Source: a virus
Virus record (IMG/VR): IMGVR_UViG_3300009826_000006
Coordinates: 1 to 53,197 of that record
Direction: 5' to 3' (one strand)
DNA: 53,197 nt
Made by a program: the position numbers and the translations under genes. Below the pieces are notes generated by a model, which was not told where the DNA came from, made no database searches, and saw only the letters and a list, made by a program, of their open reading frames with translations. Below, piece by piece: positions 810 to 15,226 of this stretch (the stretch's first letter is position 1; every line of letters starts with the position of its first letter).

Positions 810-918
810 AATAGGGTGGCGGAATGGGTAGACGCGTATAACGTAGGGTATATTACCTTGGAATTTCCTTCCCGGTCGAAATATATACTATGTGAGGTTC
901 AAATCCTCATCCCTATTT
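810..918 (+). tRNA. atypical oversized tRNA-like gene (Leu-type D arm, canonical T arm, no recognisable anticodon arm, no encoded CCA)
   Basis: acceptor AATAGGG/CCCTATT; TG; D arm GCGG-AATGGGTAGA-CGC; T arm GTGAGG-TTCAAAT-CCTCAT; 56 nt between D and T arms. Confidence 0.5.
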
Positions 919-5088: not shown

Positions 5089-5538
5089 ATGAGATGTTTG
5101 TTAATACTTTTATTTTTGTTTGTACTAACATCTTGCGGTACTAGTGAAGATTTATATAAACCTGCACCTGAACTCGTATACACACCTGAAGTTGTTTTAG
5201 AAGAGGTGCCTTGGTGTTGTTTTTTAGAAGAAGAGTTTTGGTTAGTGATAGCTATGTATATGAGTATGTTGCAGGCTCAAGCTATAGGGCATACAGTAAC
5301 GTTAATTACTCACCTAGAACCTACTTACTATTCTCTTAGGGGTGTGCTTATGGAGTTAGAAGATGGTCCGTACTTAATGGTTGTACAATTTGCTAATCTT
5401 CATAGTGCTCAGTACTTTTATAATACACTACCTGTAAGTAGGCGTGCAATTCATGAAGAATTTTATCTTGTGTTACAAAAAAGCGATTGGGATTCTATGG
5501 TTGCGATTCTTTTTCCAGCCATATCAATAGGAGGATAA
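5089..5538 (+). CDS. putative lipoprotein
   Basis: signal peptide with lipobox LLFLFVLTSC. Confidence 0.6.
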   Translation: MRCLLILLFLFVLTSCGTSEDLYKPAPELVYTPEVVLEEVPWCCFLEEEFWLVIAMYMSMLQAQAIGHTVTLITHLEPTYYSLRGVLMELEDGPYLMVVQFANLHSAQYFYNTLPVSRRAIHEEFYLVLQKSDWDSMVAILFPAISIGG

Positions 5539-5539
5539 A

Positions 5540-5998
5540 ATGAATCAAGTATACACGGGACTCGCACCAGTAATCAAGTCTTCGCTTCCCAATGTTCAAA
5601 AAAATAATAAAGCAGAGACAACATCTACACCCTCAACATTTGAGGAATATCAGGAGATACTTGAGCGCTCATGTCATGTCGTTAGATATCTTCAGGATAT
5701 TACGCGAGGCGGTATGCCTAAAAAATTGCAAGGCAATCAAGTGCCCTTAGCTATGGCTTTTCTTTCGCAAGCCCTGCATGATATACTGCTTCTCAGCCGT
5801 ACAGTAGAAGCCTTCGCAAAATTAACAAATCAATGGCCTACAATAATACCTCCGTCTCGTGAAGAACTTGACAATGATCTATGCGAGAAATATTGCACAC
5901 ATCCCGGTGCTGCCTGTGAAGGTCGAGGATGTTCTGAAGCTTATGAAGCCTTCCTGGATGATTTCCGTAATGGTAAATTTGAAAAATCGGAGGTGTAA
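5540..5998 (+). CDS. hypothetical protein (152 aa)
   Basis: ORF, coupled start/stop with neighbours. Confidence 0.6.
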   Translation: MNQVYTGLAPVIKSSLPNVQKNNKAETTSTPSTFEEYQEILERSCHVVRYLQDITRGGMPKKLQGNQVPLAMAFLSQALHDILLLSRTVEAFAKLTNQWPTIIPPSREELDNDLCEKYCTHPGAACEGRGCSEAYEAFLDDFRNGKFEKSEV

Positions 5999-6283: not shown

Positions 6284-6491
6284 CTTTGAAGGTGTAGGAG
6301 GACCTACTAAAAAACAACAGCGTTACGCTAAATTCATATCCTCTACGTTAGAAATTTCATTACCTAAATTTACTTTTGAGGCATACTCTAACTTCATAGC
6401 AGAGTATAGCACAGAAGCCCAAATAACTCAAGATGAGCAGAGATATGAAGATGCATATGAATCCTGGTGTTTGGAATGTGAGGATTTCTGA
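6267..6491 (+). CDS. hypothetical acidic protein (74 aa); start moved to ATG 6267
   Basis: AGGAGGG SD before the internal ATG (MTIKLNFEG...). Confidence 0.55.
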   Translation: MTIKLNFEGVGGPTKKQQRYAKFISSTLEISLPKFTFEAYSNFIAEYSTEAQITQDEQRYEDAYESWCLECEDF

Positions 6492-6518
6492 GAGCTTAAA
6501 ATTTTTCCTTTAGTACCC

Positions 6519-6547
6519 TTGAAAAACTAAATTGTTTCCTATATAAT
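6519..6547 (+). promoter_or_regulatory. sigma-70/sigma-A type promoter
   Basis: TTGAAA (6519-6524), 17-nt spacer, TATAAT (6542-6547), in the gap upstream of 6571. Confidence 0.6.
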
Positions 6548-6570
6548 TATTAAAAATGGAGGTATAAAAA

Positions 6571-7347
6571 ATGCAAACTATTGATGTAAAAGGCGTAATT
6601 ACGAAGCCACATTTTATTTTAATGTATGGCGCATCAGGTACAGGTAAAACTCATCTGTGCGGTACTCTGGGGGATCTAGGTAGCGTGCTTTTTATAGACA
6701 TAGATCAAGGTTACGAAACTCTTTCATGCGCCCCTGAACTTGAAAAAGCTCGTAATAACATTACTATAGTTAGTTTTGAAGCTTTTAAAGATCTTAATGA
6801 CGCTTATAAAGCTACAAAACAAAATGATCCTAAAGAGTGGTCGCGTATCTTTAATAAAGGTAAAAAATCAACAGACCCATCATATGTTAAAGTGACTCAA
6901 CCGTTCGATTGGATTGTTTGGGATACTTGGAGTGAAATACAATTTCATATGATGGAGGAACTCCGGCAACAAAAAGACCACGGTAAGTTTACAAATATCT
7001 TGGACTTTCGTAAGAGTGCAGAGATTCAACATTGGGGCATGCTTACCGACCTTAATAAGCTTTCTATACAGGAATTACGTAAGTGTAAAGTCAATCAAGT
7101 ATTTATAATGCAAGAGACTATGGTTAAAGACGAGCTCTCAGGCGTCGTTACAGGCGGTCCAGCTATTCATGGTAAAATGGTGCAAGAAATGCCTTCGTAC
7201 TTTGGTATAGTCATTCATACAACAACGAATATTATGGGACAATTCGCTGCAACAACTAGATCAAAAGGGCGTTGGCCTGCGAAGTCCCGTAGAGGACCCG
7301 GCGCAGACTATAACAAACCTACTATGAAGGATGTGCTTAATATATGA
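6571..7347 (+). CDS. Sak4-like RecA-fold AAA ATPase (recombination/replication)
   Basis: Walker A GASGTGKT, VLFIDID, size and synteny with a DUF669-like gene. Confidence 0.65.
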   Translation: MQTIDVKGVITKPHFILMYGASGTGKTHLCGTLGDLGSVLFIDIDQGYETLSCAPELEKARNNITIVSFEAFKDLNDAYKATKQNDPKEWSRIFNKGKKSTDPSYVKVTQPFDWIVWDTWSEIQFHMMEELRQQKDHGKFTNILDFRKSAEIQHWGMLTDLNKLSIQELRKCKVNQVFIMQETMVKDELSGVVTGGPAIHGKMVQEMPSYFGIVIHTTTNIMGQFAATTRSKGRWPAKSRRGPGADYNKPTMKDVLNI

Positions 7348-8728: not shown

Positions 8729-9445
8729 ATGTCTAAATATGCAATTCTGTTATCTGGAGGTACAGACTCAGCAACTTTGTTAGGTAAACTACTTACTGAA
8801 GGATGTTGTAAAAGTGATATTTTGGCTATAGCATTTAACTATGGGCAAAAGCATGATATTGAGTTAAGGGCTTCAAGGCTTGTTGCAAAGTATTATGGTG
8901 TAGAGCATAAGACTTTGAACCTTTCTAATATTTATAAAGATGCCGAGAATCCTCTTCTGAAAGAAAGTAATAAGGCAATCCCTAAAGGCCCGTATGTTGC
9001 AAAACAGGTAGCAACTTATATACCTTTTCGTAATGGCTTATTTATATCCGCAGCTGCTGCATATGCAATGTCTATATGGCAAGATGAAAAAGATATTTTT
9101 ATATCTTTAGGAGCTCATACAGATGACAGCGTAGGAGATGTTTATGCTGATTGTTCTAAAACTTTTACACAATATATGGATAGAGCTATTATGCAGGGCA
9201 CTTATAATGTAGTAAAGCTTTTTTCACCATTTGCAGCCCGAAGATATACAAAAGCAAAAATAGTTAAAGCAGGTCTCAAAATTGGTGTACCTTATCATTT
9301 AACTTGGTCTTGCTATGAAGGTTCTACAGGACAAGGTGCTTGTGGCAAGTGTTCTACATGTATAGATCGTTTAAAAGCTTTTCATATCAATGGAGCACAA
9401 GATCCTATAAAGTATAAGGAGGTAACAGATGTATCAAATATCTAA
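8729..9445 (+). CDS. queC: 7-cyano-7-deazaguanine (preQ0) synthase QueC
   Basis: LLSGGTDS PP-loop; C-terminal Zn motif SCY...CGKCSTC; typical length. Confidence 0.85.
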   Translation: MSKYAILLSGGTDSATLLGKLLTEGCCKSDILAIAFNYGQKHDIELRASRLVAKYYGVEHKTLNLSNIYKDAENPLLKESNKAIPKGPYVAKQVATYIPFRNGLFISAAAAYAMSIWQDEKDIFISLGAHTDDSVGDVYADCSKTFTQYMDRAIMQGTYNVVKLFSPFAARRYTKAKIVKAGLKIGVPYHLTWSCYEGSTGQGACGKCSTCIDRLKAFHINGAQDPIKYKEVTDVSNI

Positions 9446-9797
9446 ACGTATGGAAATTGCAGGTAGCCATAAGTTAGATTTGGATTACCCTTCTCCATGT
9501 GGCGAGTTACATGGTCATAACTGGATTGTAATAGTTCATATTAGAGGGCCTAATTTAAATTACAATGGCATGTTAATTGATTTCGCGCATATTAAAAAAG
9601 AAATCCATGACTTGTTAGACCACAAAAATTTTAATGACGTTTTACCCAAACATGTACCTACCACGGCAGAAAGCTTAGCTTGTTGGATTTGCGAGAAAAT
9701 AAACTTACTTGACAAAGCCCCTGGTGCACACTGTTATAAGGTAGAAATATGGGAATCTGAAGGGAATAGGGCGGTGTATATAAATGAAAGTAAATGA
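9429..9797 (+). CDS. queD: 6-carboxy-5,6,7,8-tetrahydropterin synthase QueD
   Basis: CGELHGHNW motif, about 120 aa, between queC and queE. Confidence 0.8.
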   Translation: MYQISKRMEIAGSHKLDLDYPSPCGELHGHNWIVIVHIRGPNLNYNGMLIDFAHIKKEIHDLLDHKNFNDVLPKHVPTTAESLACWICEKINLLDKAPGAHCYKVEIWESEGNRAVYINESK

Positions 9798-10491
9798 AAT
9801 CTTTAAGTCTATAGAAGGCGAAGGTATGCATGCAGGTAAAGTTACCACCTTTATACGTTTACAAGGCTGTAATCTAAAATGCCTTTATTGCGACACTCAA
9901 CATGCAGGCGATTCTGAAGGCGGTACGCAAATGTCTAGACCTACAATTATGTCACGTGCCATTTGTAACTTTTCAAATCACGTATCTATCACAGGAGGGG
10001 AACCTCTATTACACGAAGAATTACCTAAGCTCGTAGTACGTCTTCTCCGTGAATACAGAACTGTGCATATAGAGACAAATGGTAGTATATCTATACCTGA
10101 GTTTTTTAAAAAGGTTCAAGAGCATGCTGCCCGTACAGTAGCTATACTACTATTAAAAAAATTTCTTACCTTTTCTATAGATTATAAACTACCTAGTTCA
10201 GGACATGAGATGCAGATGTTAGCTGAAAATTTTGAATATGCAGCAGCTAACAGTGATACCTGTTCTGTAAAATTTATAGCAGGTACGCAAGAAGACTTAT
10301 GGCAAATTTGCGATGTCATAAGAGAGTATAAACTTGAAAAATGTTTTGTAGGACCAGCATTCCAACAACTTGATCCTCAAGAGATAGTTAATTGGCTTGT
10401 AAATTTGCAGGACAAGGATGTGCAGGGCGCTTTACGCTTACAGTTGCAACTGCACAAAATTATCTGGGATCCAGAAAAGCGAGGTGTGTAG
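9784..10491 (+). CDS. queE: 7-carboxy-7-deazaguanine synthase QueE (radical SAM)
   Basis: FIRLQGCNLKCLYCDT cluster motif, ITGGEPL. Confidence 0.8.
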   Translation: MKVNEIFKSIEGEGMHAGKVTTFIRLQGCNLKCLYCDTQHAGDSEGGTQMSRPTIMSRAICNFSNHVSITGGEPLLHEELPKLVVRLLREYRTVHIETNGSISIPEFFKKVQEHAARTVAILLLKKFLTFSIDYKLPSSGHEMQMLAENFEYAAANSDTCSVKFIAGTQEDLWQICDVIREYKLEKCFVGPAFQQLDPQEIVNWLVNLQDKDVQGALRLQLQLHKIIWDPEKRGV

Positions 10492-11057
10492 TGGATATCA
10501 ACAGAGCTGAAATAGCAATAGCTAATATTATAGAAACATTTGGCGGAGACTTACAATCTGAAGGTATGCGGGATACACCTAAGCGTGCAGCTAAAATGTT
10601 TGCTGAGCTCCTTGAGGGTATGCAGTACACTAATGAGCAAATAGCAGAAAAGTGTAGCAAGTGTTTTGAGCACGTTAGCCATAACGATCTTGTCATTGTG
10701 CAAGACATACCTATTTTCAGTCTTTGCGAACATCATCTGGCTCTCATGTATAATATGAAAGTGCATGTAGCTTATGTACCTTGCGGGCGTGTAATTGGTC
10801 TTTCAAAAATAGCACGCATTGCACAACTTGTAAGTAAGCGCTTTCAGCTTCAAGAGCGTATAGGGCAGGATATCCTGGAGATTCTAGCATATGTATTATG
10901 TACTAATGACATTATGGTCATCGTAGAGGGAGAACATTCCTGCATGACTGCAAGAGGTGTCAAGGTTGCTGGAGCACGTACTAAGACATCAGCTATAAAT
11001 GGACGATTCAAAAAAGTGCTTGCGTTACGTCAAGAAGCATTGGCACTAATTAAATAA
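10491..11057 (+). CDS. folE: GTP cyclohydrolase I FolE; start moved to GTG 10491
   Basis: GMRDTPKRAAKMF, SLCEHHL, EGEHSCM motifs; GAGGTG SD; 188 aa fits the family; the ORF-track N-extension overlaps queE. Confidence 0.85.
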   Translation: MDINRAEIAIANIIETFGGDLQSEGMRDTPKRAAKMFAELLEGMQYTNEQIAEKCSKCFEHVSHNDLVIVQDIPIFSLCEHHLALMYNMKVHVAYVPCGRVIGLSKIARIAQLVSKRFQLQERIGQDILEILAYVLCTNDIMVIVEGEHSCMTARGVKVAGARTKTSAINGRFKKVLALRQEALALIK

Positions 11058-12366: not shown

Positions 12367-12500
12367 AACGTGGTGGCGGAATGGGTAGACGCGCGGTGGA
12401 GAAGGCCTGTGGTGAGAGGGTTAGTTAGGACGGTAGTCCCAGACCTAATGATTTGTGGTAGGTGTTCAGGCATGTAGGGTTCAAATCCCTACCCACGTTA
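12367..12500 (+). tRNA. atypical oversized tRNA-like gene (134 nt) with the same 5' 22-mer as 815-836
   Basis: acceptor AACGTGG/CCACGTT; TG; D arm GCGG-AATGGGTAGA-CGC; T arm GTAGGG-TTCAAAT-CCCTAC; 80 nt between D and T arms; no CCA. Confidence 0.5.
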
Positions 12501-12529: not shown

Positions 12530-15226
12530 GTGATTTATTCAAGGTTTATTACTTTCGAATGCAAGCATAATGACGGGCAGCTTTACGCTTTGTGCCCTTT
12601 ACATGTAGAAAAGACCCCGTCATTCACAGTTAATGAGGAGACAGAAGAATGGTATTGTTTTGGTTGTGCAGAGGGTGGAGGTCCTAAAGAATTTGTAGCT
12701 AAACTTCTAGATGTTGATATTACTATAGCTAAGACTGCGATTTCTACTTATGAAAAATCTGGTAATTGGATTTTGCCGGAGGATGATCGCATTGATAAGT
12801 TGCATGTAAATCTTATTACAAGACCTTCTGAAATAGCCATACTACACAAGTATGGTATAACTAGAGAAGCTATCGAAAAATATAGGTTAGGCTGGGAAGA
12901 TACTAGAATTATTTTCCCTATTTTTTCTCGTACTGGTTACTGCGTTAACCTAAGAAAATATCTCCCACCTCACAGGCGTGAAGATGCTTTGCGTAAGGTT
13001 ATACATGAAAGAGGTTTAGGTAAAGGAAGTCCAAGATTTTATCCTTATGAAGCCTTTGATGAGGATACTATTTTTATAGTCGAAGGTGAGAAAGACTGCA
13101 TTGCTGCTAGGGCTCAAGGCATCAATGCAGTTACAGGTACGGGAGGTGCAACTTTACCTGTACATGAAGCTTTAATGTTTAAGGACAAACATGTTATCCT
13201 AATGGTTGATACTGATAAAACAGGTAATAAATTGGCAAGAGATTACTATCAATTACTGCAGCAAGTTGCATCTTCTATAAAACGTGTAGTACTTCCTACA
13301 AAAGATTTTGTAGAGTATTTTGAAAATTGCTCAGAGTCTGAAGAGGATATGGATGTAATGAAATTCCTTGAAGCTTCTGTGCAACAAGCTGCTGATGAAG
13401 TTGAAGCTCAGGAAGCTACACTTGCATCAGCTGAAACAGTAGAAAACTTAGATACTTGGGTTATTTTAAAAAATATGACTATTGTAGGTACGGAAGCTAA
13501 AATTTATACAGTACCTACTAAACTAGAATGCGTATGTATTTCATCTAAATGCGATAAATTCTGCCCTTTGGCATCGACGTCTTTAACTGGTAAAGGACCT
13601 ATTATAGATGTACCATCTAGGCATGTTGTACATTTCCTAGACTCTAACGATGGTATACAAGATAAGTTTGTACAAGAAAAATTTCGTTGTCAAAAAGTAA
13701 AAGCTATACCTACAGAATATGTCAATGTACAAAAAATAATCTTCCAAGAGTCAGCCTCTTTTGTAGATGGTCTAGAAGATGCAACATTTGAACACCGTTA
13801 TGGAATGTACACATATGTGGACCATAGACTAAGCGCTACTATGAAATATGATTTAGTAGCTTGCAGAGTAACGGATCCTCGTACACAGGTAGTATATTAT
13901 GTTATTCGAGACGCTGAAAAGATTGATATGCATATACCATCTATGTATTTGGAAAGCGTAGATAAGTTCCGTCTCGTGGCGCAAATTTCTAACAGTGCTA
14001 TAGAACTTTTAGAACATTATTATAAAGAGTGGTTACCAACTTTAGCTATAGAAGGCCGATTAGATTTGTTTGGAGCTATGCTTTTAACATATTGCTCAGT
14101 AACAGAAATACCTTGGCAAGGTGGAATTATAAAAGGGTGGTTAGATACAATATGCGTTGGAGATACAAGAACGGGGAAATCTCAGATGGCACAACGCTTT
14201 GTTAAATCTATAGGAATGGGGAGTTACATCAATGGAGAAAACGCGCGTAGAACAGGTGTTATTGGAGGTCTCCAACAATTTGGAGGTTCTTGGGTTATCA
14301 CTTGGGGAGCTATACCACTCAATGACAGAGGCCTTCTTGTCATTGATGAAGCTAGTGGACTCGATATTGACGACATTAAAGACTTATCTTCAACGCGCAG
14401 TTCTGGAGCTGTTACACTTCATAAAATTGTTAAAGGAGAAGCAAGAGCTCGTACCAGGTTATTCTGGTTATCCAACCCCCGTTCAGGCTGTAACATTCAT
14501 GAATTCTACTGGCGTGGCTATGGAGCATTTCAAGAATTCATACCTGCAGTGGAAGACCAGGCAAGATTCGACCTCGTATTATCGGCGGCGCGAGAGGATA
14601 TAGATACTCCTAAAGGTATTGACCATTATCATGAACCTGAGCTTAACAACTGGCGAGATTTAGTTGCAACTGCTTGGTCTTTAACTCTTGAAGATATTAT
14701 TTACGATGATGTGTTTCGCGCTAGAATAAGAGAGTCCTCTAAAGCTCTCAATGAAGAAATGGGCGGTGGACCTCTTATTGTAGGGGTTGCTGTACATGAG
14801 AAACTTCTAAGGCTTTCCTGCGCTTTTGCAGTGCTTTCTGGAGATGTATATGATGGTAAGCTAAAACTTAAAGAGAGGCATCTAGAGTATTCTGTAGAGT
14901 TTCTTAAGTATACTCTCTTAAAGGAAACAATGTCTTACGGTGAATACGTTAAAGGCTTGAAAAAGGCTAGAGAAGCACGTATTAAGAATATAGAATTTAT
15001 ACGCGGTTTGTTAGTATTACATCCAGCAATAAAAGCTGTATTAATTGCAAAGACTTTCCGAGGACATCAGTTCTCTGAAATATTAGGTTTAGATAAAAAT
15101 GAATCTGCAAAGATACTCTCCGACCTTATTAAGCGAGGTCTTGTATCTGTACAGTCTCATGCTACTTATAAACCTGAAAGTGTTCTAACAGATGTAGCAA
15201 GACAATTCGAAATAGGAGGAGATTAG
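12530..15226 (+). CDS. primase-helicase fusion: CHC2 zinc finger + Toprim (DnaG-type) + MCM-like AAA+ ATPase; start moved to GTG 12530
   Basis: CPLHVEKTPSF...CFGC; IFIVEGEKDCIAA and MVDTDKTGNK (Toprim); GDTRTGKSQ, GAIPLNDRGLLVIDEASG, ARTRLFWLSNP, ARFDLVL align with MCM Walker A/B, sensor and Arg-finger motifs; AGGGGA SD. Confidence 0.75.
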   Translation: MIYSRFITFECKHNDGQLYALCPLHVEKTPSFTVNEETEEWYCFGCAEGGGPKEFVAKLLDVDITIAKTAISTYEKSGNWILPEDDRIDKLHVNLITRPSEIAILHKYGITREAIEKYRLGWEDTRIIFPIFSRTGYCVNLRKYLPPHRREDALRKVIHERGLGKGSPRFYPYEAFDEDTIFIVEGEKDCIAARAQGINAVTGTGGATLPVHEALMFKDKHVILMVDTDKTGNKLARDYYQLLQQVASSIKRVVLPTKDFVEYFENCSESEEDMDVMKFLEASVQQAADEVEAQEATLASAETVENLDTWVILKNMTIVGTEAKIYTVPTKLECVCISSKCDKFCPLASTSLTGKGPIIDVPSRHVVHFLDSNDGIQDKFVQEKFRCQKVKAIPTEYVNVQKIIFQESASFVDGLEDATFEHRYGMYTYVDHRLSATMKYDLVACRVTDPRTQVVYYVIRDAEKIDMHIPSMYLESVDKFRLVAQISNSAIELLEHYYKEWLPTLAIEGRLDLFGAMLLTYCSVTEIPWQGGIIKGWLDTICVGDTRTGKSQMAQRFVKSIGMGSYINGENARRTGVIGGLQQFGGSWVITWGAIPLNDRGLLVIDEASGLDIDDIKDLSSTRSSGAVTLHKIVKGEARARTRLFWLSNPRSGCNIHEFYWRGYGAFQEFIPAVEDQARFDLVLSAAREDIDTPKGIDHYHEPELNNWRDLVATAWSLTLEDIIYDDVFRARIRESSKALNEEMGGGPLIVGVAVHEKLLRLSCAFAVLSGDVYDGKLKLKERHLEYSVEFLKYTLLKETMSYGEYVKGLKKAREARIKNIEFIRGLLVLHPAIKAVLIAKTFRGHQFSEILGLDKNESAKILSDLIKRGLVSVQSHATYKPESVLTDVARQFEIGGD

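Follow-up and report, generated by a model that had tools for sequence, protein, structure and literature searches.

The 53,197-nucleotide (nt) stretch of viral DNA in IMG/VR record IMGVR_UViG_3300009826_000006 (positions 1 to 53,197; the window, that is, the whole stretch analyzed) encodes two elements, at positions 810-918 (element 1) and 12367-12500 (element 2), in which the acceptor stem, D arm and T arm of a leucine-type transfer RNA (tRNA) enclose a long central segment that takes the place of the anticodon and variable arms. As judged by comparative sequence analysis, these acceptor, D and T arms are a widespread RNA family that is under selection for pairing, not decayed tRNAs. The elements are almost certainly unable to decode, because they have neither an anticodon arm nor a conserved discriminator. 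The interpretation we favor, with somewhat better than even confidence, is that both are non-decoding, tRNA-framed phage small RNAs (sRNAs) whose function would be carried by the central cassette.

The tRNA-Leu-framed family and its covariation

Public collections were searched with a pattern consisting of a Leu-type D arm followed by a T loop at an oversized distance. This pattern is present in 17 viral contigs and in at least 120 bacterial genome loci; the 140 matches and the member sets discussed below are from among the matches listed. The same D arm at normal spacing leads to ordinary phage tRNA-Leu genes. BLAST searches added Bacillus phages BUCT082 and KLEB27-1 and Lactobacillus phage ATCC 8014-B2, and then phi3T, BUCT083 and SPbetaL1/4/6/7. 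Among the 140 oversized matches listed, the two strands in the acceptor register are complementary at 6 or more of the 7 positions in 118 and perfectly complementary in 101; the former number far exceeds the chance expectation, which we estimate at about 1%.

The class to which both window elements belong, denoted 7/6 after its 7-base pair (bp) acceptor and 6-bp T stem, includes 77 members (75 non-redundant) from viral contigs, isolated phages (phi3T, other SPbeta-like phages and Lactobacillus phages) and Firmicute prophages. These elements are 108 to 215 nt in overall length and share a frame that consists of an acceptor that is G-C at position 7 and takes any of the four Watson-Crick pairs at positions 1-6, U8 and G9, the D arm GCG-GAAT[A/G]GGTAGA-CGC, the trinucleotide (C/U)AU in front of the T stem (CAT or TAT in 66 of the 77 members), the T stem itself, of 6 bp, and a T loop of the form U[G/U]CAAAU. 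Both window elements carry every one of these features. The acceptor and T stem together form a 13-bp helix; pairing stops at 7 bp in the acceptor, and CCA is not encoded. At the first pair of the T stem, 67 of 74 members have G-C, A-U, C-G and G-U occurring as variants; pairs 2-4 covary. At position 26, U or A predominates (T 43, A 24, G 8), and both window elements have G there. No base is conserved at the discriminator (A 37, U 24, C 8, G 6).

The collection of homologues and the covariation test that an earlier note on element 1 had proposed yielded 75 non-redundant relatives, in which the stems covary. In the frame alignment (74 sequences), 99.0% of the cells are paired, compared to 74% in shuffles, a percentage that is inflated by the retention of only those members that have a paired acceptor, although the T stem, which was not so selected, behaves in the same way. 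Double changes occur in 11 of the 16 frame pairs, with 317 double-change cells against 77 in shuffles, and the covariation score is 0.70, as opposed to 0.17 for shuffles and at most 0.17 when the partners are slid. The loops are strictly correlated as well: the D loop AAUAGGUA is found with the T loop UGCAAAU (59 members), and AAUGGGUA with UUCAAAU or UUCGAAU (14 members, the window included). In alignment A1 (74 members), this amounts to A at D-loop position 17 accompanying G at T-loop position 55, and G17 accompanying U55, which could reflect either tertiary covariation or the existence of two clades. A G at position 55 would abolish the universal pseudouridine 55.

A covariance model (R1) was built from 55 members, with the window sequences excluded. 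This model recovers window positions 810-918 with 73.6 bits (E 3e-16) and 12367-12500 with 66.5 bits (E 2e-14), and has no further match in the window. True tRNA-Leu genes with the same D arm reach 37-42 bits, compared to the 66-74 bits of the window elements. Two weak matches (26.6 and 27.8 bits), at 5146-5236 and 6378-6469 of a 415-kb viral contig (L020), are not tRNAs according to ARAGORN and may be divergent tRNA-like elements.

A second class, 7/5, comprises 41 members, mostly from Bacteroidota, other Gram-negative genomes and viral contigs; those tested score 34-59 bits with R1, and the discriminator is A73 in 38 of the 41. Five of the 40 unique sequences in this class look like real or partly duplicated tRNA-Leu genes, and ARAGORN calls four of the 40, two of these as tRNA-Leu. 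Leu-frame elements of the 7/5 type that have no anticodon arm are found in L099, L104, L132, L136/L139 and other loci, and also in L048, where three copies with near-identical acceptors have three different centers. Several metagenome-assembled genomes of gammaproteobacteria (L055, L059, L081 with two copies, L082, L109, L147) encode tRNAs whose body is of the Leu type and whose variable arm is very long, with CCA encoded; the anticodon loops CUGGAAC, CUGGCAC and CUCGCAC give the anticodons GGA, GGC and CGC (Ser/Ala codons), and most of these tRNAs are missed by ARAGORN.

Anatomy of the two window elements

All features of the two elements are on the + strand. In element 1, the 5' strand of the acceptor (AATAGGG, 810-816) forms 7 of 7 pairs with the 3' strand (CCCTATT, 911-917), in the same register that covaries in 74 family members. 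The connector U8 and G9 (T817 G818) follows; T8 and G9 are invariant in alignment A1, the columns lying inside the search pattern. The class II (Leu-type) D arm (819-835) has a 3-bp stem, GCG/CGC, and the 11-nt loop GAATGGGTAGA, with A14, G18, G19 and A21; normal phage tRNA-Leu genes have exactly this D arm, which is invariant across the collected family but was fixed by the search pattern. The equivalent of position 26 is G836. The interval of 56 nt between the D and T arms (836-891) further includes the cassette of 52 nt (837-888), which replaces the anticodon and variable arms, and the UAU linker (889-891), the last U of which is the equivalent of U48. The T arm (892-910) has a 6-bp stem, GTGAGG/CCTCAT, with G-U as the first pair, and the loop TTCAAAT. 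The discriminator position (918) is U, with no CCA after it.

Element 2 repeats this plan, with a different acceptor and a different center. Its acceptor strands (AACGTGG, 12367-12373, and CCACGTT, 12493-12499) form 7 of 7 pairs; the D arm (12376-12392) has the same sequence as that of element 1; the cassette of 77 nt (12394-12470) is unrelated in sequence to the first one; CAT (12471-12473) precedes the T arm (12474-12492), which has the 6-bp stem GTAGGG/CCCTAC and the loop TTCAAAT; and the discriminator is A12500, again with no CCA.

All parts of element 1 that the earlier note had described from the sequence alone were recovered in this analysis. Its observation of a 22-mer, GGTGGCGGAATGGGTAGACGCG, shared by 815-836 and 12372-12393 also stands: the 22-mer is present exactly twice in the window, with a chance expectation of 0.00 in shuffles even when up to 3 mismatches are allowed, and the second site proved to be a complete element with its own complementary acceptor. 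The resemblance of the 22-mer to the D-arm region of tRNA-Leu, likewise noted, extends to identity of the D arm with phage tRNA-Leu genes. When the 53 kb were searched on both strands with a strict descriptor (perfect acceptor, D arm and T arm), elements 1 and 2 were the only matches.

The minimum free energy folds of both elements contain the acceptor stem, the D arm, a single long irregular central hairpin and the T arm. For element 1, free and constrained folds concur on the long irregular hairpin of the center, a predicted structure, with pairs at about 843-846/888-891, 848-857/874-876 plus 880-886, and 860-863/869-872.

Comparison with tRNA and transfer-messenger RNA models

ARAGORN detects no tRNA or transfer-messenger RNA (tmRNA) anywhere in the window and, with default settings, calls none of the 75 family members. 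Rfam 15 gives no match at the gathering score in the window (29 bits for the tRNA model RF00005), RF00005 is absent from positions 700-1000 even at E<=10, and no Rfam match was obtained on family members (28 family loci and the window). An ordinary tRNA or tmRNA was rejected on these negative results. In particular, no covariance model folds element 1 as the ordinary class II tRNA that the earlier note had envisaged as an outcome.

The 7-bp closing acceptor stem is present in elements 1 and 2, as are the D arm with G18/G19 (GAATGGGTAGA) and a T loop of the UUCRANY type (TTCAAAT). In free and constrained folds, however, neither element has a 5-bp anticodon stem with a 7-nt loop (U33, purine 37) after position 26, in line with the failure to place such an arm that had been reported for element 1. 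The T stem is not 5 bp but 6 bp long in both elements and in the 77 members, and the additional pair covaries. The A73 of tRNA-Leu is present in element 2 (A12500) and is replaced by U918 in element 1. The G3-U70 pair of tmRNA is missing, pair 3 being U-A in element 1 and C-G in element 2.

The central cassette

Between position 26 and the (C/U)AU linker, the family centers vary in length from 45 to about 170 nt; those of the window have 52 and 77 nt. Constrained folds of all members do not reveal any anticodon-like arm in common. In many centers, a long hairpin preceded by an A-rich linker abuts (C/U)AU; in others, the hairpin directly follows the D arm, or the structure is branched. A search for motifs common to the centers revealed at most that CAGAC, GGTGCA and TAAGAC, all reminiscent of the D and T arms of the frame, are weakly enriched.

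Within sub-families, the centers bear traces of selection on their own structure. In the SPbeta-like centers, compensatory changes are found in three predicted pairs (BUCT082 compared with BUCT083 and SPbetaL1), and a pairing that changes between CUGAG/CUCAG and UCGAG/CUCGA crosses the closing helix, forming a pseudoknot, as seen by eye in the aligned SPbeta-like sequences. Similar compensations occur in the centers of loci L058/L062/L108, L050/L065 and L031/L041. Conversely, the centers of phi3T and BUCT082, which have the same flanks and the same acceptor (AATGCGG/CCGCATT), are unrelated; more generally, the centers of members with identical acceptors show similarities of 0.28-0.64, against a random mean of 0.54, with the exception of one pair. 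Several genomes contain more than one copy with different centers: two in the window, three in L048 and two in L010. The two window centers have no similarity to each other or to any collected locus, and their longest antisense match to the phage is 11 nt, the null expectation.

With regard to conservation in related phages, the lack of which in the central region the earlier note had counted, along with the lack of a stable transcript, against its reading, the outcome is split: the central region is not conserved, and the frame is conserved, at the level of the family and not of the locus. The center appears to be functional and modular, a hypervariable part that is apparently exchanged between close relatives, and the overall pattern suggests a modular RNA device under diversifying selection.

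Genomic context of the family and the SPbeta slot

Family members are mostly intergenic and co-oriented with their neighbors. The Firmicute loci recurrently encode a DUF1492/ArpU-like regulator about 0.8 kb upstream of the element, and an HNH endonuclease and the small and large terminase subunits 0.9-1.9 kb downstream. The DUF1492/ArpU-like regulator families have been described as activators of late operons (PMC3753634). The combination of a late activator upstream and a terminase downstream indicates that the favored site is the junction of the regulatory and packaging modules of temperate phages. We did not identify any dedicated partner protein, the neighbors being ordinary phage genes (TerL, TerS, HNH, late activator, YopX). 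A terminator-like hairpin is located within 120 nt downstream in 15 of 71 members, compared to 6 of 71 upstream.

Some elements reside inside tRNA arrays, namely those of several viral contigs and the one of Lactobacillus phage ATCC 8014-B2. The latter array includes a 213-nt tRNA-like family member (L032 1322-1534), and a ROOL RNA (L032 267-839, 139 bits) is located directly upstream of the array. In a Cohnella locus, an epsC (EAR) processive-antitermination RNA (L065 3349-3462, 68.9 bits) is found about 430 nt upstream of the tRNA-like element.

In SPbeta-like phages, the element occupies a defined slot: yonO, which encodes the phage RNA polymerase, and the HU-like yonN immediately precede it, and the yonK late genes follow. 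A tRNA-framed element is present in this slot in phi3T, BUCT082/083 and SPbetaL1; in Goe14, the same slot, with the same flanks, contains instead a skipping-rope RNA (RF02924; L167 777-886, 31.3 bits, E 8e-6), and the slot of SPbeta itself (L166 around 755-860) contains a sequence homologous to the Goe14 skipping-rope RNA. A DUF3800-VIII RNA is located about 1.3 kb beyond the slot, before yonK, in SPbeta (L166 2106-2171), Goe14, phi3T and BUCT082. The skipping-rope, drum and eleven DUF3800 motifs have unrelated structures and presumably a single DUF3800-linked function (Weinberg et al. 2017, PMC5737381), and DUF3800 proteins accompany CRISPR effectors that clip the 3' tails of tRNAs (PMC13594972; bioRxiv 10.64898/2026.08.25.746378). 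An unannotated non-coding RNA upstream of yonK has been mentioned for SPbeta (Forrest et al. 2017); it may or may not correspond to the slot and is the one hint of expression as a discrete RNA. Circumstantially, the slot and the DUF3800 links suggest a conflict-related role.

The phage genome in the window

The window represents a phage genome about 53 kb long, in which G+C accounts for about 38%. The replication module occupies the + strand from 1 to 20 kb and includes genes for a PD-(D/E)XK exonuclease, an SNF2 helicase, a DnaG-MCM primase-helicase, MazG and a family A polymerase; the terminase gene is on the - strand, as are the structural genes, judging by the sizes of open reading frames (ORFs). 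Both elements are intergenic and lie on the strand of the replication genes, element 2 just upstream of the primase gene. The called start of the latter (GTG at 12455, 923 amino acids (aa)) overlaps the 3' part of element 2. Initiation at an in-frame GTG at 12530, preceded by GGGGA, would give an 898-aa primase, which matches the length of the homologues (893-901 aa), so that the overlap is probably not real and the gene probably does not extend into the element.

Upstream of element 1, between the element and an ORF at 26-712, there is a perfect 12-bp hairpin (732-771; TAAGCGCTTAGC/GCTAAGCGCTTA) with a run of 11 C in the loop (745-755), followed by an A-rich tract. Directly 3' of element 1 (933-984), a strong Shine-Dalgarno sequence, GAAGGAGG, precedes an 11-codon ORF (MNAYEKQKHFP), and terminator-like hairpins at 1029-1045 and 1070-1092 separate this ORF from the exonuclease gene (P0121), the likely true start of which at 1202 yields a 304-aa product. 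Positions 8729-11057 contain, on the + strand as well, a cluster of genes for QueC, QueD (PTPS), QueE (radical SAM) and GTP cyclohydrolase I (FolE), that is, the 7-deazaguanine pathway, which occurs in phages with modified DNA; no link between this cluster and the tRNA-like elements was found.

The window phage has no match in the GenBank phage collection by megablast, and the primases of the nearest isolated phages are less than 30% identical. A protein-pattern scan of viral contigs for close relatives had no match, and a metagenome scan for the sub-lineage with G26 and TTCAAAT retrieved two contigs, in which the center is unrelated. In the closest relatives, long inverted-repeat elements that are not tRNA-like are located upstream of the primase gene (L154 around 6450-6700, L156 around 5700-5900), with the common core GGTTGACCATGC...GCTAAACGG.TGACGT; these could be an unrecognized RNA or an origin-like structure.

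A proposed mode of action and the case against it

The acceptor/T helix and the elbow formed by the D and T loops are the recognition parts for RNase P, RNase Z and the CCA-adding enzyme, and RNase Z is the processor of CCA-less precursors in Firmicutes. Under the favored interpretation as non-decoding sRNAs, the element would be transcribed together with its same-strand neighbors or, in about one fifth of the members, as a separate unit that ends at a terminator. Given that the recognized helix and elbow are conserved, it would probably then be excised by RNase P and RNase Z and stabilized in the manner of a CCA-less tRNA, with the cassette as the part that carries specificity. Our best guess is a role in trans, in phage-host or phage-phage conflict or in the control of the phage program, considering the hypervariability of the centers, the swapping of cassettes and the slot common with the skipping-rope sRNA. 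The variable discriminator argues against general leucylation.

Of the five readings that the earlier note offered for element 1 (a tRNA with an intron or insert, an expanded anticodon loop, a tRNA-scaffolded sRNA released by RNase P and RNase Z, a decoy for anticodon nucleases, or a decayed gene), the scaffolded sRNA fits the anatomy and the comparative data best: the frame is conserved and covaries, the center is changeable yet structured, and some members belong to phage tRNA arrays.

Several observations weigh against this interpretation. For every member, we infer transcription and cleavage by RNase P and RNase Z from sequence. No homologue of either window center was found, so that these two centers have no covariation support of their own. 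The folding energies of elements 1 and 2 are no better than those of shuffles (z -1.24 and -0.36, respectively); folding thermodynamics therefore proves nothing here, and the case for more than chance is comparative, where the selection of members by acceptor pairing has to be kept in mind. The metagenomic relatives of the window phage (primase 55-65% or exonuclease 45-49% identical) do not have the tRNA-like frame; the two window copies are lineage-specific accessory genes. In the family at large, only 25 of 74 members have G-C as their first acceptor pair, which, along with the variable discriminator, is atypical for efficient bacterial tRNA processing and aminoacylation. The T loop of the major subclass, UGCAAAU, has G at position 55, and the D loop of SPbetaL1 does not contain G18/G19, so that the elbow is perhaps not strictly tRNA-like in all members.

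Alternative explanations

It is possible, albeit unlikely, that the elements act in cis, as tRNA-like punctuation or stability elements of polycistronic phage mRNAs, such that transcription units are separated, or a structured end that protects the adjacent mRNA is left, when the host RNase P and/or RNase Z cleaves at the frame, and the released piece has no function. Such a role would agree with the co-orientation of most members with the coding genes that tightly flank them, with the lack of a nearby terminator in 56 of 71, with the favored site at the boundary of regulatory and late (packaging) genes, and with the restriction of conservation to the parts that are read by processing enzymes. 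It offers no reason, however, to retain a center of 45-170 nt, let alone a center in which compensatory changes and pseudoknot-like pairings accumulate within sub-families, which is exchanged as a cassette between close relatives, and which comes in several different versions per genome; moreover, some members have a terminator of their own. An improbable variant on tRNA function is a chargeable mimic, with a body that is recognized by leucyl-tRNA synthetase (LeuRS) and used outside decoding, in tmRNA-like rescue, as an aminoacyl donor or as a LeuRS sink. LeuRS does not read the anticodon, and the elements possess the D arm and the tertiary nucleotides of tRNA-Leu; A is the commonest discriminator (37 of 75, and 38 of 41 in the 7/5 class); and the topology resembles that of tmRNA, in that the ends meet in the acceptor stem and an insert with a pseudoknot takes the place of the anticodon. 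The major LeuRS identity element, however, is A73, whereas half of the 7/6 class, including element 1 with its U, has another base (U, C or G) at this position; furthermore, G3-U70 is missing, ARAGORN finds no tmRNA, and the window centers of 53-78 nt contain no evident tag-like ORF.

The remaining readings fare worse. A decayed tRNA-Leu pseudogene, or a DNA-level feature (attP remnant, origin or packaging site) that retains tRNA-like sequence, appears highly improbable: although it would be in keeping with a D arm shared, letter for letter, with real phage tRNA-Leu genes, with the absence of the elements from relatives of the window phage and with the position of element 2 just upstream of the primase gene, the compensatory double changes in 11 of 16 pairs across 74 sequences imply selection on RNA pairing, the acceptor halves, unlike attP fragments, are always both present and complementary, and the family spans many phyla and contexts. 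For the decayed gene, too, the covariation and the breadth of the family are the counterevidence. The least credible of all is a real decoding tRNA with a short intron or an expanded anticodon loop. At low threshold with free introns, ARAGORN does draw element 1 as a 75-nt tRNA(CGA) with a 34-nt insert removed, the anticodon stem GTATA/TATAT and the loop GUCGAAA. With default settings and introns allowed, by contrast, there is no call in the window and one among the 75 members, and the low-threshold models, obtained for 24 of the 75, are inconsistent: their anticodons have nothing in common (Ile, Met, Ser, SeC, Val, His, Stop and others), the boundaries of the inserts are not conserved, the insertion point is non-canonical (31/32), most models placing the insert within positions 30-37 and not at the canonical 37/38, and element 2 can be modeled only with a U.U mismatch and two G-U pairs. 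Also unlike tRNAs, the family has a 6-bp T stem and a variable discriminator, and we know of no bacterial splicing system for inserts this short. The expanded anticodon loop founders on the lack of a conserved anticodon stem across the family. A decoy for anticodon nucleases is not supported because there is no anticodon loop available for cutting; a decoy for factors that read the tRNA body or the 3' end is possible.

The last possibility leads to a bolder version of the favored sRNA interpretation, which we consider rather doubtful as a whole: the leucine-tRNA frame would be a display and processing scaffold for interchangeable cassettes, the RNAs would be interchangeable with sRNAs of the skipping-rope/DUF3800 type, and their role in conflict would be that of non-decodable sponges, decoys or sensors, with the cassette tuning specificity. 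If true, the targets would be host factors that read the tRNA body or 3' end, for example, tail-clipping immune nucleases and CCA-modifying toxins.

Relationship to known RNAs and implications

The mimicry of tRNA by non-coding RNAs is already known from tmRNA, YrlA and T4 rnaC. The source of the frame in the present family is the class II tRNA-Leu, with which it shares the 7-bp acceptor, U8/G9, the D arm with its stem of 3 bp and loop of 11 nt, the counterpart of U48 and a tRNA-type T loop (UUCAAAU here); unlike tRNA-Leu, it has no anticodon stem-loop, a T stem of 6 bp rather than 5 bp, a variable discriminator and no encoded CCA. In tmRNA, a tRNA-like domain ends in the acceptor stem and T arm, and a large, partly pseudoknotted insert replaces the anticodon arm. 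This topology is shared by the family, with its ends in the acceptor/T arm and a partly pseudoknotted domain at the place of the anticodon, but the family has a true D stem, no G3-U70, no evident tag ORF and a length of only 108-215 nt. As in tRNA-Sec, the acceptor and T stems sum to 13 bp; the split, however, is 7/6 and not 8/5 or 9/4, the D stem has 3 bp instead of 6, and there is no anticodon arm.

The bacterial Y RNA YrlA ends in a Ro-binding stem and has an acceptor-like stem closed by a loop, whereas here the topology is reversed, with an open acceptor stem and a closed center. YrlA is a non-decoding mimic of the tRNA acceptor, D and T arms that also occurs in phages (Chen et al. 2014, PMC4201824). 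Membership in YrlA is not indicated by Rfam, with no match at the gathering score in the window or at E<=10 on positions 700-1000. The T4 species 1 and 2 RNAs (rnaC and rnaD) resemble the family as stable orphan RNAs of about 120-140 nt inside a phage tRNA cluster, and rnaC also ends in a T arm and an acceptor-like 3' strand but has no Leu-type D arm. Homology to T4 rnaC was rejected on the strength of its score with model R1 (13.6 bits, E 0.79), and we regard it as an analogue. The skipping-rope RNA (RF02924) and the DUF3800 motifs are, likewise, phage-associated structured sRNAs, and the slot after yonN in SPbeta-like phages is common to the two groups; however, there is no sequence or structure similarity to the skipping-rope RNA, and no RF02924 match on the window or the family loci. 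The common slot may point to functional equivalence.

Rfam 15 has no entry for the family, the GenBank phage records examined do not annotate it, and full-text literature searches did not find a description of the 7/6 family. Although tRNA finders miss it, it occurs commonly in prophages of Firmicutes, within phage tRNA arrays and in model phages, phi3T among them. In phage annotation pipelines, the genes are overlooked or may be labeled as unusual tRNAs; one related member has been called as a 95-nt "tRNA-Glu". The architecture, an invariant tRNA frame with a swappable structured cassette, at times in several copies per genome, is what suggests the modular device. The presence of members in tractable Bacillus subtilis phages, and of the skipping-rope RNA in the SPbeta slot, makes two orphan classes of phage RNA approachable by experiment.

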